Positions 45,242 through 51,137 of a stretch of 64,000 nt of DNA are shown here, in pieces; positions within the stretch are counted from its first letter, which is position 1; each line of letters starts with the position of its first letter. Made by a program: the position numbers and the translations under genes. The notes below the pieces were generated by a model. It saw nothing but the letters and a program-made list of their open reading frames with translations. It did not search any database and was not told the DNA's origin. The DNA is from an uncultured delta proteobacterium (lineage in GTDB: Bacteria > Desulfobacterota > RBG-13-43-22): NCBI GenBank assembly GCA_963790475.1, contig CAWBOS010000013.1:224001-288000 (forward strand), given 5' to 3'.

Positions 45242-46936
45242 TTACGCCTTATAGGCCCCCAGATTGGCCAGGGCCACGCTGCCCGGACTGATGGTCGTTG
45301 GATCGGTCATGACATTAATGCAGGTCGTCTTCCCGGAAGCAAAGGCCTCTTCCAAAGCCGGACGAATATCCTCCGGATGTTCAACCAGCATTCCTTTACC
45401 GCCCAGGTCCTCCACCAACTTATGATAATTGACCCGGCCGATATAGGTGCCATCAGGAATAGCATGCCCTATTTTCAATTCCTGGCTGTGCCGGATCATG
45501 CCCCAGCCCAGATCATTACTGATCACCGCCACAATAGGCAGGTTCTTGCGTATGGCCGTTTCAAACTCCATAAAATTGAAGCCCACCGATCCATCACCGA
45601 TAATCAGGCAGACCCTTTTCCGGGGATAAAGATATTGGGCGGTGTTGGCATAAGGAATTCCAACTCCCAGGCAGCCATATAGGCCGGAATCGAGATAGTG
45701 GCCGGACTGCCGGACCGTCCGGGTCATGCCCATCCAGATCTGGGTATCACCGCCGTCGGCTACGACAATATCATCTTCCCGGTCCATAAAGTGATTGATC
45801 TCGGCCGCCAGACGTAAAGGGTGGATGGGGGTTTCGGTGCTTTCCCACTGGGTTTTGGCCTCGGCTTTTCCGTCTTGTCCGGCCTTTCTTAAGGTAGAGA
45901 CCCAATCTTCAAATCTTTTTTGAAGGCCCGAATTAAGATTTTTTCCCTCGATGAGGCGGTTGCAGACAGCCAGCAAGCCTTGAATATCGCTGACTACCGA
46001 TAGATCCACCGAACGATTTCTTCCGATTTCTTCGGCTTCAATATCCACCTGGATAATTTTGGCTTCCTTGTTAAAAAGCTCCCCGAAGATATAAAAGAGG
46101 CTCATGCGCGCCCCCAGAAACAGGACCAGATCGGCACTCATATTGGCAAAAAGGGCCGCACCGGGGCGAACGGCCAGAGAGGATTCAAAACATAGCGGAT
46201 GGGTGTCGGGAATAGTCCCCCGGCCGAGAGAGGAGGTGAAGGCCGGTATTCCGGTCTTTTCCACAAATTCAATCAGCTCCTGCCCGGCCCCGGAATACCA
46301 GGTCCCGCTGCCGGCAATGACGATAGGCTGGGAGGACTGTTGAAGCAACTCGATGATTTTCTGGCACTGGTCCAGGTCCACCGGATGAGATTGGATCACA
46401 CTGTAGGTCCTTTTAACGGCTGTCGGATCAGTCTGGGCGTTAAGCACATCCACGGGCAGTTCCAAATAGACCGGTCCCGGGCGACCGCTGGCGGCAATAC
46501 GATAGGCCAGGTCAATAAACTCCGGGATCCGCTCCGGCTTATGACAAACCAGGGCCTTCTTGACCATGGGCTCGATTACCGGGGCCTGACGCATGTCCTG
46601 CAAATCCAGCTTTTCGATGCATTCCACGCCCACGCACCCTGAAATAAGGACCAGCGGTGAATTGGCCAACCGGGCATTGGCCACAGCCGACAGGGCATTG
46701 GTGAAACCCGGCCCGGCTGTGACCATGGCCGTTCCCGGCTTTCGCCTCATTCTCCCCCAGGCCTCGGCCATAAAAACCGCGCCCTGCTCGTGGCGGGTAT
46801 CAAACAGCTTAATGGGTGAGTCCTCCAGGTATTGGTAGATCGGGGTGATATGTCCGCCGCTTAAGGTAAAAATCGTTTCCACGCCTTGCCGAATCAAGGC
46901 TTCGGCCGTGAGTTGTCCTCCGGAAATTTTTCCCAT
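45242..46936 (-). CDS. thiamine-diphosphate enzyme (acetolactate synthase-like / 2-hydroxyacyl-CoA lyase-like)
   Basis: TRHEQ, GPGFTN, GRPGPV, GDGS...ND ThDP motif. Confidence 0.92.
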   Translation of the reverse strand: MGKISGGQLTAEALIRQGVETIFTLSGGHITPIYQYLEDSPIKLFDTRHEQGAVFMAEAWGRMRRKPGTAMVTAGPGFTNALSAVANARLANSPLVLISGCVGVECIEKLDLQDMRQAPVIEPMVKKALVCHKPERIPEFIDLAYRIAASGRPGPVYLELPVDVLNAQTDPTAVKRTYSVIQSHPVDLDQCQKIIELLQQSSQPIVIAGSGTWYSGAGQELIEFVEKTGIPAFTSSLGRGTIPDTHPLCFESSLAVRPGAALFANMSADLVLFLGARMSLFYIFGELFNKEAKIIQVDIEAEEIGRNRSVDLSVVSDIQGLLAVCNRLIEGKNLNSGLQKRFEDWVSTLRKAGQDGKAEAKTQWESTETPIHPLRLAAEINHFMDREDDIVVADGGDTQIWMGMTRTVRQSGHYLDSGLYGCLGVGIPYANTAQYLYPRKRVCLIIGDGSVGFNFMEFETAIRKNLPIVAVISNDLGWGMIRHSQELKIGHAIPDGTYIGRVNYHKLVEDLGGKGMLVEHPEDIRPALEEAFASGKTTCINVMTDPTTISPGSVALANLGAYKA

Positions 46937-47001
46937 ATTTTTTACTTTTCAGATCAATATCGAAGATTCGTAACAGTTTAGCTTCTTGAAATAACTGTTT
47001 C

Positions 47002-47178
47002 CACCGCAAAGGCGCAAAGGGCGCAAAGAAGAAGATATATTATTGATTGTCCCGCGGGACAATCAATAACCCCCGCTACCCTGCGGGTAATTGTTTGGCC
47101 GGAGGCCAGAGCTGTTTTATTCAATCCCGCCTCTCACGGGATTGAACAATAATGATTCACTCTGCGTTCTTTGCGTCT
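47002..47178. repeat. ~185 bp palindromic repeat (CACCGCAAAG...CTTTGCGGTG), interrupted by IS110; last bases at 48779-48786
   Basis: Inverted copy at 50875-51056; partial copy ~60886-60952. Confidence 0.8.
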
Positions 47179-47241
47179 GGTTTATTGTTGTCAAGAGTTT
47201 TTTAAATATTATTAAACAAACTGGTAACTATCTTAGAGTGA

Positions 47242-47389
47242 CACCTTGCCCAACTCTGGTAATTTGAGAGTCTCAACAGAGCTCTAACCTTGCTTTATTG
47301 GGGTTAAGGTGCAAGCGGAGAGTTATTTAAGCTCTGCGAGAAGGTCGACTTAGTCGCCTTAGATGCCGCAAACGATAATCTCTCCGCTT
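47242..47389 (-). ncRNA. predicted IS110 bridge RNA (target loop ~47313-47389, donor loop ~47242-47311)
   Basis: Two stem/internal-loop/stem units whose loop strands match target and donor flanks. Confidence 0.7.
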
Positions 47390-47404
47390 ACACGCTAAGA
47401 AGGT

Positions 47405-48664
47405 CTAAGCAGCCAGTTTTAACGTTGCTCCTTTTGAATAATTTTCCATATATTCGTTATGATCACGCACCAAGGCAAAAATAACACCGAGAAGCTTCCG
47501 GGCAATGGCTACCAGGGCCTTGATCTTGGGCATTCCTTGATCCAGATGCCTTTGATAGGCCGTATGCATCACTCCCCCTTTTCGAACCGTATTGATAGCG
47601 GCAAAAAAGAGGATTTTCCTAAGAAGCGACCGGCCTCTTTTGGATATATGACGATTCCCTTGGTGCCTTCCAGAACTGATTTCAAAGAGGTTCAGTCCGG
47701 CCAACTTCAGGACTTCAGCCAGCGTATGAAATTTACGAAAATCCCCGACTTCTCCAATCAGTCCGGCGGTGGTAACCTCTCCTATCCCTTTCAAGGACAG
47801 AATCGAATGACTATAGGGGATCTCGGGAAGAAGGGCCGCCATCTCCTGTTCCGCCTTCTCAATAAACTGGTCAGAAGATTCAATCTCAGAAAGAAGTTCT
47901 CGTATCTCAAAAAGAATCGCCTTGCGGCCTTCTTGAAGACCTACGGAATGGCCAGCGGCCGCATAAAGGGCCGGGGCTCGCTCTTTATCCAGCTTCCCTC
48001 GGCTAACCCGTCTCAGCGTGGCCCTCAAGGTCCCAAGACCACATTGGATAATATCTTCCGGGCACGGATAATGCCGCAACAGATATTGGGCACTGCGGGT
48101 TTTAATATTCTTCATCACTTGCAGAAACTCGGGGAAGACAATAAAGACCAAATCCTGAATCTGGTTCAAAAGGCCCGTTCGTCTTCGTATGGCTCTCTCC
48201 CTGGCATGGGTCAGTCGGCGAAGTTCAGCTGCCGCGCCTTCGGGAATGACCACGGTAAGGGCATGACCCAGCTCAATAATATCCGCAATGACTTTGGGAT
48301 CTTTCCTATCCGTCTTATTGGGCGAGTTACCCTGGACTTCCTTCAACTTCTTCGTATGCATAGGATTAACCTGAACCAGTGTCACCGGCCGTTTCATCAG
48401 AAAATGTTGCAAGGGTTCTCCATAAGACCCGGTGGATTCAAAACCAACCACGATTTCTTCCAAGTGATTGGCCTCTTTGGCCTCAACCATCCGATTCCAA
48501 AATTTCGTAAATCCTTGATCATTATTGAAAAACTCAAAAGGTTTGATTTCCGTCCGGTCTGGACAGCGGCCATATCCCATATTGGTCGTTTTGCCTATGT
48601 CCACGGTACCGATAAGGGTTTTTTCATTGACCTTCTTAAGTTTTTTTGTTTCAATCTTATTCAT
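47405..48664 (-). CDS. IS110 family DEDD recombinase/transposase
   Basis: VDIGK, FESTGSY, KTDRKD, SSG, ISKRG, VAIARKL. Confidence 0.96.
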   Translation of the reverse strand: MNKIETKKLKKVNEKTLIGTVDIGKTTNMGYGRCPDRTEIKPFEFFNNDQGFTKFWNRMVEAKEANHLEEIVVGFESTGSYGEPLQHFLMKRPVTLVQVNPMHTKKLKEVQGNSPNKTDRKDPKVIADIIELGHALTVVIPEGAAAELRRLTHARERAIRRRTGLLNQIQDLVFIVFPEFLQVMKNIKTRSAQYLLRHYPCPEDIIQCGLGTLRATLRRVSRGKLDKERAPALYAAAGHSVGLQEGRKAILFEIRELLSEIESSDQFIEKAEQEMAALLPEIPYSHSILSLKGIGEVTTAGLIGEVGDFRKFHTLAEVLKLAGLNLFEISSGRHQGNRHISKRGRSLLRKILFFAAINTVRKGGVMHTAYQRHLDQGMPKIKALVAIARKLLGVIFALVRDHNEYMENYSKGATLKLAA

Positions 48665-48896
48665 GGCTATACTCCTTTCCTTGGTTTGGGTTTAACCAAC
48701 TTGCAAATTGGACCTCAAATCAAGAAAGAGTATAGCCTTTTTTGTACGGCTTAACTACTTTCTAAAATATAGCAAGCTTTGCGGTGAGCAAAAACTCTTT
48801 TTCAAAAACTTAAAGTGTTACAAAAGCTCAAAGAAGATTTTGGCCCGGCAAAAGGTGTTTGGTTCTTCCTTGAACCTTGAACCTCGCACCGTTTAT

Positions 48897-49733
48897 CTAT
48901 ATTTCCATTAACTGTCCCCCGGTCACATTGACGGCCTGACCGGTCATGTAGGAAGAGGCCTCGGAGGCCAAAAAAGCCACCAGATTGGCCACTTCATCTG
49001 TGGCACCGATACGGCCCAAGGGAATCATCCGGCACATTTCCTGTTCCCGTTCTTCCGGCGTGGACCCGAAAAACCGGGCCTCCAGTTCAAATCGCCATTT
49101 TTCCAGATCAGTTTGAATTTGTCCCGGACAAACGGCATTGACCCGGATCCCGGACCCGGCCAGTTCTCTGGCCATGACCTTGGTCAGCATTATCACACCG
49201 GCCTTGGCTACGGCATAGGCGCCATTAAACAGAGGGGGGACTTTGCCGGCCCGGGAAGCGGTGTTGATGATGCTCCCCGATTTTCCGGTCATTAGAGGCA
49301 GGACGGCCCGGGAGACCCGAAAAACCCCATGGAGATTGACATCAATCGTTCTCATCCAGGCCGATTCTTCATATTGCTGAACCGTGTTGGGGACGCCGAA
49401 GGATGCCCCGGCATTATTACAGAGGATATCGATCCGGTCGAACCGGTCTTTGATCCTCTCCACCATCTCCAAAATGGAATGGTTGTCGATGACGTTTACC
49501 GGCACGGCCAGGGTCTGAACGGCGAACCGGTTATTCAGTTCCCGGGCCAGTCCCTCCATTTCCTCCAGCGTTCCGGTGCCGACTTCGCTGGATTCTTGTT
49601 GAATATTTCCCAGATCAGCCAGAATCACCTGGGTTCCCAATGACGCCAATTTTCGTCCTATAGCAAACCCGATCCCGGACCGCTTCCCGGCGCCGGACAC
49701 CAGGGCTGTTTTTCCTGCCAAATCCTGCAACAT
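48897..49733 (-). CDS. SDR family oxidoreductase
   Basis: SG...GIG, NNAG, YAVAK, VNAVCPG; AGGAGG RBS before MLQDL. Confidence 0.93.
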   Translation of the reverse strand: MLQDLAGKTALVSGAGKRSGIGFAIGRKLASLGTQVILADLGNIQQESSEVGTGTLEEMEGLARELNNRFAVQTLAVPVNVIDNHSILEMVERIKDRFDRIDILCNNAGASFGVPNTVQQYEESAWMRTIDVNLHGVFRVSRAVLPLMTGKSGSIINTASRAGKVPPLFNGAYAVAKAGVIMLTKVMARELAGSGIRVNAVCPGQIQTDLEKWRFELEARFFGSTPEEREQEMCRMIPLGRIGATDEVANLVAFLASEASSYMTGQAVNVTGGQLMEI

Positions 49734-50752: not shown

Positions 50753-50874
50753 GAATCGGCCTTTCTCCAGGAAGGGATCCTGGAGGATCGACCACGGCTA
50801 TGAAGTGGGTGGTCACGCCGGAGCAAAGTTGAAAAGAAGTGACACTTTAATTGTTTGAAGAAAGAGCTATTATT

Positions 50875-51056
50875 CACCGCAAAGCCGCAAAGATCGCAGA
50901 GAGAATTATTTTTATTCAATCCCATGAGAGGTGGGATTGAATAAAACAGCTCAGGCCTCCGGCCAAACAATTACGCGCAGGGTAGCGAAGATTATTGATT
51001 GCCGGCCACTCACCGGCAATCAATAAAAATATTTCTTCTTTGCTCAGCGTCTGGTG
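50875..51056. repeat. palindromic repeat, inverted copy of 47002-47178
   Basis: Shared ATTCAATCCC...GGGATTGAA, GGCCTCCGGCCAAACAATTAC and TTATTGATTG...CAATCAATAA blocks. Confidence 0.8.
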
Positions 51057-51137
51057 AAAATATTTATTTCAAAAAGCTAAACTGATACGAAAAGAAGAAC
51101 CCGCCCCGAAATTTATTCACGAAGACTTGAGGTAAAT

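Follow-up and report, generated by a model that had tools for sequence, protein, structure and literature searches.

A predicted bispecific bridge RNA in the 3' non-coding end of an IS110-family insertion sequence from an uncultured delta proteobacterium

The insertion sequence and its insertion sites

The window, that is, the whole stretch of 64,000 nucleotides that was analysed, carries on its minus strand an IS110-family insertion sequence in which the transposase gene lies between a 5' non-coding end of 112 nt and a 3' non-coding end of approximately 226-227 nt; the features discussed here are listed in Table 1. The element starts with CTTGCTATATT at 48776 and ends with ...AATAAACC at 47179 (minus strand), and the genome holds 10 copies of this 1598-bp element, nine of them identical and one with one substitution. 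Judging from the sequences of these 10 near-identical insertions, the element is apparently active. A search of the same genome for a second, differently programmed relative returned only these 10 copies and distant IS110-family genes (29% identity). Four such distant transposase matches, all over the C-terminal part, lie at C1:240541-240996, C13:479327-479785, C12:172307-172642 and C12:1483740-1484075.

Table 1. Features of the insertion sequence, its predicted RNA and its insertion site (window coordinates).
Feature	Position	Strand	Basis
IS110-family insertion sequence body, 1598 bp	47179..48776	minus	CTTGCTATATT... to ...CTTGACAACAATAAACC; 10 genomic copies with these ends; both ends kept in homologues
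Transposase/recombinase gene, 419 aa	47405..48664	minus	Pfam PF01548 E 2.5e-24, PF02371 E 5.7e-20
Left core dinucleotide AG (plus strand CT)	48777..48778	minus	AG before CTTGCT in 10/10 copies and in every homologue locus including the left junction
Right core AG	47177..47178	minus	AAACC-AG closes 10/10 copies and most homologues; single AG at uninterrupted sites
Target left half, ACCGCAA before core	48779..48785	minus	copy junctions
Target right half	47169..47176	minus	ACGCAAAG in 9/10 copies, ACGCAGAG in 1/10
MITE-like repeat carrying the target, larger part	46967..47176 (remainder 48777-48824)	minus	42 BLAST rows span the reconstructed empty site
Predicted bridge RNA domain: outer closing helix and two stem-loops	47228..47399	minus	single fold, consensus fold, pair counts, outer helix
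Stem-loop 1, target-binding loop (predicted)	47313..47389	minus	helices 1-3; internal-loop strands differ between homologues
Outer stem of stem-loop 1	AAGCGGAGAG 47389-47380 / CTCTCCGCTT 47322-47313	minus	pairing read from sequence
Inner hairpin of stem-loop 1	47360-47341	minus	read from sequence
Target loop 5' strand, UUUGCGGC	47365..47372	minus	cognate Watson-Crick run 6.76 vs 3.21, 21 families
Target loop 3' strand, CGCAG-AG	47332..47338	minus	cognate 4.74 of 7 vs 1.92, 23 families
CU after target-loop AG, handshake-guide position (inferred)	47330..47331	minus	analogy with IS621 positions 81-82
Stem-loop 2, donor-binding loop (predicted)	47242..47311	minus	helices 4-5
Stem of stem-loop 2	CACCUU 47311-47306 / AAGGUG 47247-47242	minus	read from sequence
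Donor loop 5' strand AGCAAG	47289..47294	minus	complementary to the element's first six bases, CTTGCT
Donor loop 3' strand ACC-AG and handshake A	47255..47260	minus	ACCAG (47260-47256) in 26/26 RNAs equals the element's last three bases and core
TTGACA, -35 half of end-joined promoter	47189..47194	minus	joined ends; TTGACA-like hexamers kept in homologues
TATATT, -10 half of junction promoter	48766..48771	minus	joined ends
5' UTR hairpin, GGCUAUACUC pairs with GGAGUAUAGCC	48665..48737	minus	predicted fold z = -4.07, 0/200 shuffles; both arms conserved across homologue loci

The transposase has the two domains that mark the IS110 family, an N-terminal DEDD RuvC-like domain (PF01548) and a C-terminal Tnp domain (PF02371) with a conserved Ser-Gly, and it reaches 216 bits, against a cut-off of 140, with the NCBIfam model NF033542, 'IS110 family RNA-guided transposase'. 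Residues D22, E76, D119, D122, S331 and G332 are invariant in 22-23 of the 23 aligned homologues. Among solved structures only the IS621 and ISCro4 recombinases are related, and the similarity to them is weak (E 4.2e-8 and 1.3e-5); E76, D119, D122 and S331 align with E60, D102, D105 and S241, the residues named as catalytic in IS621 (PMC11208158), with D22 falling outside the alignment, a mapping for which an offset of two residues between solved-chain and native numbering is assumed. The best named plasmid match is ISBth13, at 27.5% identity.

Homologues were collected in a scan of one genome per species that gave 43 loci, 42 of which were used (L021-L062, 46-67% identity), while L063 (26% identity, partial) was left out. 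At least 170 nt of downstream sequence is present in 40 of the 42, and together with the window these represent 34 distinct sequences of 255 nt; 26 RNAs were aligned after L026-L030, L032, L040 and L052 had been dropped as near-copies of L025, L038 and L051. The flanks have gaps at some loci: L041 and L049 stop at a contig edge, L024 and L047 come without downstream DNA and L056, L061 and L062 without a left flank, the right end of L022 is masked by N, and for L060 no right end was found within 1500 nt.

On the minus strand, the left junction reads ...CACCGCAA-AG followed by CTTGCT and the right junction ...AAACC-AG followed by ACGCAAAG, the same two junctions that an earlier note on this DNA had reconstructed from the window itself. 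The left end, AG and then CTTGCTAT, is identical in all homologue loci that reach it, and the right end, ...TTGACA..AATAAACC-AG, is present in most homologues. We found no sub-terminal inverted repeat, in agreement with that note: between the first and the last 62 nt there is no exact inverted run of 6 or more, and the best 12-nt inverted window between the element ends scores 9/12, which 263 of 300 shuffles reach.

When the two flanks are joined with a single AG, the resulting sequence aligns unbroken elsewhere in the genome, with 42 BLAST rows spanning the joint, and the uninterrupted copies of the site read CACCGCAAAG-N-CGCAAAG, with one AG each. Since AG stands at both junctions but only once in the empty sites, insertion uses a defined site, with a shared core of two bases, and produces no duplication; sequence-specific insertion with a short shared core and without target duplication, as is expected of the IS110 family, is thus found here. 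The left halves of the 10 copies are CGCAAAG in four, CGCAGAG in three, and CACAGAG, CACAAAG and CGCGGAG in one each. As the flanks of the 10 copies differ, they represent separate, independent insertions.

The sequence that hosts the insertion is a MITE-like, intergenic repeat of approximately 255 bp. It is bounded by imperfect inverted repeats, each about 65 nt long (score 49; the best shuffle scores 27), and the insertion sequence sits within one of these terminal repeats. One of the 10 copies, in C6, lies outside the repeat altogether, and its site still fits both guides described below. The terminal repeats contain three tandem CGCAAAG-type units, and the MITE-like repeat also has two internal perfect hairpins. 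The opposite terminal repeat of the copy that bears the insertion sequence has AG-G and is unoccupied. An empty MITE-like copy is present at 50839-51091 on the plus strand; the long terminal repeats were not called in this in-window empty copy because its far end is degenerate, and the copy bearing the insertion sequence has them.

Many relatives of the element (L042, L046, L061, L031, L051, L054 and L058) are also located between short tandem repeat units of 7-9 nt, for example GGTTCAG, present about 5 times in L061, the GATTCAAGG units in L046 and the CACGAAG units in L058. At such tandem repeats the half-sites are near-copies of each other, and as a consequence both target-loop strands are mutually complementary.

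The predicted RNA, its two loops and its expression

The 3' end folds at -67.9 kcal/mol (z = -4.91), and none of 200 shuffles was as good. The consensus fold of the 26 homologous RNAs contains two stem-loops that both comprise a large internal loop and an inner hairpin; 26 of the 39 base pairs show compensatory double changes and 98.5% of the cells pair. The covariation score is 0.335, compared with 0.173 in shuffles (0/500 shuffles reach it), and when the partners are slid by 1-3 columns pairing falls to 35-49% and at most 9 pairs have double changes. A structured RNA in a long non-coding end, with stems kept by compensatory changes, is what a bridge RNA is expected to be, and folding and aligning the 3' ends of homologues is the check that the earlier note had proposed; the stems and loop strands drawn in that note are all where it had placed them on the minus strand. 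The RNA domain probably extends slightly further on both sides than was described there, from about 47399 to 47228, because a UCUUAG/CUAAGA helix closes both stem-loops. This outer helix is found in the window's sub-clade, and its two strands change together in relatives such as L025 and L059. G.U pairs occupy 51 cells and A.C only 5, which favours an RNA of the transposase sense. An Rfam scan of 46500-49500, with E up to 10, returned no bridge RNA family, and the two matches it gave (MIR529 and RT-6) are at chance level.

The internal loop of stem-loop 1 is the predicted target-binding loop. Its 5' strand, UUUGCGGC, can pair with the right flank (CGCAAA) and the core G on their coding strand, and its 3' strand, CGCAG-AG, has the same sense as the left flank and core and is hence complementary to the opposite strand; each loop strand had already been assigned to the correct half-site in the earlier note. 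In the window copy the guide is imperfect, since the G at 47366 faces an A at the first flank base, beside the core, and together with one G.T wobble this accounts for the two differences counted previously, which are real. CGCAG-AG matches perfectly at 3/10 local sites, those with the left flank CGCAGAG, and with one G.T wobble at 5/10, and the G at 47366 would pair better with AG-C sites, which are abundant and unused. The two target strands can pair with each other in the free RNA, because the target is itself a direct repeat.

The loop strands were compared with the flanks of their own and of other families. For the 3' strand, where the seven bases ahead of AG were set against the seven ahead of the core in the cognate left flank, a mean of 4.74 of 7 positions are identical in cognate comparisons against 1.92 in non-cognate ones (23 families; 0/20000 permutations), and for the 5' strand the mean Watson-Crick run against core G and right flank is 6.76 against 3.21 (21 families; 0/5000 permutations); since the families are related, these permutation tests overstate independence. 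The 3' strand always ends in AG, and 20/23 families pair at 5 or more of the 7 positions, wobble allowed, as in L060 (CAATTTTAG against ...CCAATTTTAG), L033 (ATGCGGAG) and L054 (TCACGAAG). Runs of at least 7, with wobble, are formed by the 5' strand in 15/21 families, for example in L042 (UUGAAUCCU against AG-GATTCAA) and in L038 (10 nt), and runs of only 5-6 in six families. With its own flank, L033 has a 5'-strand run of only 5, and its sister copy L036 one of 8; the register of the 5' strand is shifted by 1-2 nt in some families (L033, L037, L038, L051 and L054). Close relatives with different guides are found at correspondingly different sites (L043 and L045; L048 and L062). These results show the covariation that had been named as a further check and that is expected of a bridge RNA, with both strands of the first loop changing together with the left and right target halves, on opposite DNA strands.

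In one Nitrospiraceae genome, copies are present at AG-GGTCTGTGAG (L038 and L040, with a common left flank) and at AG-TCTGTGAG (L039). The guide of these three copies fits both sites in different registers and the base at its handshake position (U; see below) fits L039 only, a pattern that suggests off-register insertion or a duplicated segment.

The internal loop of stem-loop 2 is the predicted donor-binding loop. The GCAAG of its 5' strand is invariant in 26/26 RNAs, and the leading A is replaced by G in L023 alone (GGCAAG); AGCAAG is complementary to the first six bases of CTTGCTAT, which is itself invariant at the left end. Both AGCAAG and ACCAG match invariant element ends, the donor-junction match described in the earlier note; since the ends do not vary within the clade, covariation is limited to the handshake base (20/22 families).

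As to expression, the joined ends of the element read TTGACA-17 nt-TATATT, and both halves of this putative promoter are kept in most homologues. Joining of the ends would create a promoter driving the transposase and, by read-through, the RNA; a circle-junction promoter has been reported for ISEc11 and ISEc21 (PMC11187229). In the integrated copy the -35 half would be lost, and the predicted 5' UTR hairpin, which covers the ribosome-binding site up to the start codon, would hide that site. A promoter scan called no sigma-70-like promoter directly upstream of the RNA on the minus strand, so that the simplest guess is that the RNA arises by read-through from the transposase transcript and is then processed. 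A conserved motif of the 5' UTR, GCAAGUUGGUUAA at 48691-48705 (minus), is similar to the joined donor ends of the opposite strand (GCAAG-CT-GGTTTA) and may be just part of the UTR hairpin.

No circle junction was found among the contigs of the sequencing runs. In one metatranscriptome library (run X19) one contig covers 47169-47382 with three differences, the gene being uncovered in that run, and in an RNA library (run X20) a piece of the gene and a piece of the flank are covered; both runs cover small shares only, and as they consist of contigs, no start, end, strand or level can be read from them. The X19 contig is the only hint of expression, a weak one, and may derive from DNA. Loose contig ends at 47175 correspond to uninterrupted AG-C copies of the repeat.

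Handshake position and choice among sites

The handshake guides of IS621 form pairs with the partner DNA once the strands have been exchanged, and the complex becomes locked when they pair with the cognate DNA (PMC11208158). At the corresponding position of the first loop, the CU at 47330-47331 could pair with the two donor bases that directly precede the core (CT frame); the base after the loop-1 AG is C in 25/26 RNAs, and the first base of the element is C in all loci. In the second loop, the base after ACCAG is the same as the first right-flank base in 20/22 families, whether A, G or T (permutation 1/100000), the exceptions being L061 and L038, and the next handshake base matches in 9/22 families.

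In this genome, the empty sites that fit CRCARAG-N-CGCARA have C as N in 23 cases, G in 13, T in 7 and A in 4, and occupation is seen at 10/14 AG-A sites against 0/43 AG-C, AG-G or AG-T sites (Fisher p = 2.3e-8). By analogy with IS621, A47255 would select AG-A sites through handshake pairing, and at AG-C sites C47331 would pair with its cognate target and block exchange; handshake guides of this kind, C in loop 1 and A in loop 2, would explain why AG-A sites alone are used. It is possible, if somewhat doubtful, that the preference for A after the core has instead to do with other pairing, protein contacts or chance history and not with the A at 47255. The handshake role is taken from the IS621 analogy only, the second handshake position follows the flank in a minority of the families (9/22), and L061 and L038 break the rule at the first. 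However, the first position holds in 20/22 families with at least three base identities (A, G and T) across the clade, the 10 insertions have different flanks, and the target loop's own base at that position is G, which is unable to explain a preference for A.

The role of the RNA as a whole could also be read otherwise. One alternative is that only stem-loop 1 guides, as a short seekRNA, that the protein recognises the ends, and that stem-loop 2 is a scaffold or a processing signal whose matches to the ends are otherwise caused. IS1111 transposases do co-purify with short seekRNAs of 82-96 nt, for which the text of PMC11187229 describes target matches only; moreover, the donor-loop guides never vary, hence no covariation stands behind them, and the core-facing base of AGCAAG-G/A-U is mismatched in 26/26 RNAs. 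We nevertheless hold this to be improbable: in loop 2 the 6-mer and the 5-mer equal to the two ends stand where loop 1 has its target guides, a two-loop plan is likewise found in the IS621 bridge RNA (PMC11208160), and the base that follows ACCAG goes with the first target base in 20/22 families, which argues for a reading of DNA by loop 2 at the crossover. Less credible still is an ordinary 3' UTR element (terminator, stability or translational control) whose loop-flank matches come from a simple-repeat target. The strong structure does lie directly after the stop codon, short matches are easily found with the tandem CGCAAAG-type target of this genome, and neither a terminator-like site nor a promoter for the RNA itself was called; but each family's loops match its cognate flank rather than those of other families, as the permutations indicate (0/20000 and 0/5000), non-repeat targets such as CCAATTTTAG (L060) and ATGCGGAG (L033) are matched too, and the site of the C6 copy, outside the repeat, fits both guides as well.

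Relation to known systems and proposed mechanism

The predicted RNA resembles the bridge RNA of IS621 (PMC11208160, PMC11208158) in having two stem-loops with internal loops, of which the target loop precedes the donor loop, and the two systems also share the CT core, the DEDD and Ser catalytic residues and handshake positions after the AG of each 3' strand. In the CT-core frame, where the plus strand of the window is the top strand, the 5' strands read the left half on the bottom strand and the 3' strands the core and right half on the top strand, as in IS621, whose loop strands pair with opposite DNA strands, core included (PMC11208160). Members of the IS110 group (IS621-like) have a short inverted pair of 2-3 bp around the donor sequence, and in the window copy a 3-bp ATA/TAT pair stands there, ATA-GCAAG-CT-GGTT-TAT; homologues with ACA or GTA opposite keep TAT, without covariation. 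In contrast to IS621, the RNA is here downstream of the gene, and RNA and gene are inverted relative to the ends, both pointing to the left end in the CT-core frame. The recombinase has 419 aa against 328 in the solved chain, with the weak similarity (E 4.2e-8) concentrated in residues 265-400, and complementarity is only partial at the core-facing bases of the 5' strands. The upstream 112 nt hold the ribosome-binding-site hairpin and not the bridge RNA, which in the IS110 group (IS621-like) lies in a long left end upstream.

With the IS1111 seekRNAs (ISEc11, ISPa11 and ISKpn4; PMC11187229) the element has in common a long non-coding stretch after the transposase gene, insertion into repeats at specific sites, a circle junction at which a promoter would form, and a match to the transposase-sense (top) strand that is located 5' of the match to the bottom strand. 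A 3' location of the RNA as in the IS1111 group had been proposed in the earlier note, and it is indeed the downstream 226-nt end that carries it. In the IS110-type ISEc21 the strand order is the reverse of that of the IS1111 seekRNAs (PMC11187229), and as the order here, in the transposase frame, is that of the IS1111 seekRNAs, the element works like an IS1111-type system in layout. Thus, a downstream non-coding region with a guide RNA and the IS1111 strand order are present, whereas sub-terminal inverted repeats of 7-17 bp are absent, the transposase has 419 aa and not the approximately 330-350 aa of the IS1111 group (PMC11187229), and the donor loop is a simple internal loop, as opposed to the multi-loop reported for many IS1111 orthologues. 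The combination of a large transposase (395-455 aa in the IS110 subgroup) and a downstream region is shared with the IS110 members with a 3' non-coding region, which the text of PMC11187229 gives as exceptions and leaves unnamed. Insertion into the terminal inverted repeat of another mobile element is also known for an IS110-family element, the host here being the repeat of approximately 255 bp with its tandem CGCAAAG units.

Taking into consideration the anatomy of the element, the structural covariation, the covariation of guides and flanks and the site preference, all of them observed, we consider it very likely, with a probability of roughly 90%, that an active insertion sequence of the IS110 family lies at this locus and that its 3' non-coding end encodes a bispecific bridge RNA (seekRNA) transcribed in the transposase sense. 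Transcription, RNA-protein binding, a circular intermediate and handshake gating are what we infer from these observations. In the proposed mechanism, stem-loop 1 would bind the target, with its 5' strand on the coding strand of core G and right flank and its 3' strand, CGCAG-AG, on the opposite strand of left flank and core. Stem-loop 2 would bind the donor, with AGCAAG on the first bases of the element and ACC-AG on the strand opposite its last bases and core. The recombinase, with D22, E76, D119, D122 and S331, and the RNA would then pair the circular element with CRCARAG followed by ACGCAAAG, and strand exchange at the AG/CT core would leave the target unduplicated. C in loop 1 and A in loop 2, each of them next after an AG, would act as handshake guides to the partner DNA after exchange.

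A guide RNA in the 3' end of IS110-family elements is already established (PMC11208160, PMC11187229). Bridge RNAs have been predicted in 93% of IS1111 and 85.7% of IS110 entries (Durrant et al., PMC11208160), and a 2026 preprint gives 32,190 predicted bridge RNAs from 86 models (10.64898/2026.10.21.760802). We found no name or description of the present clade in the papers searched, the supplementary listings of which may contain the family, and the clade is apparently an unnamed branch of the known RNA-guided recombination systems. The label of a candidate new programmable recombinase ortholog, given in the earlier note, is fair.

Among RNA-guided recombinases the locus represents a further, well-defined branch, for which more than 20 natural guide-target pairs and clear element ends are available. 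It also provides a natural test of handshake guides, in which the sites that best fit the target loop (AG-C) are never used and those that fit the donor-loop handshake (AG-A) are mostly occupied, and this site pattern bears on the tuning of specificity in programmable bridge recombinases. The mixed layout and the natural handshake data are the parts that deserve specialist attention. We raise, as a tentative suggestion only, that the clade may be a third IS110-family layout, in which an IS621-style RNA with two internal loops is combined with a long IS110-type recombinase and the inverted downstream arrangement of IS1111, without sub-terminal repeats, and in which a single handshake base of the donor loop, and not the target loop, picks among near-identical sites. 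If true, this third layout would offer an example of handshake gating in nature and might link the IS110 and IS1111 groups.
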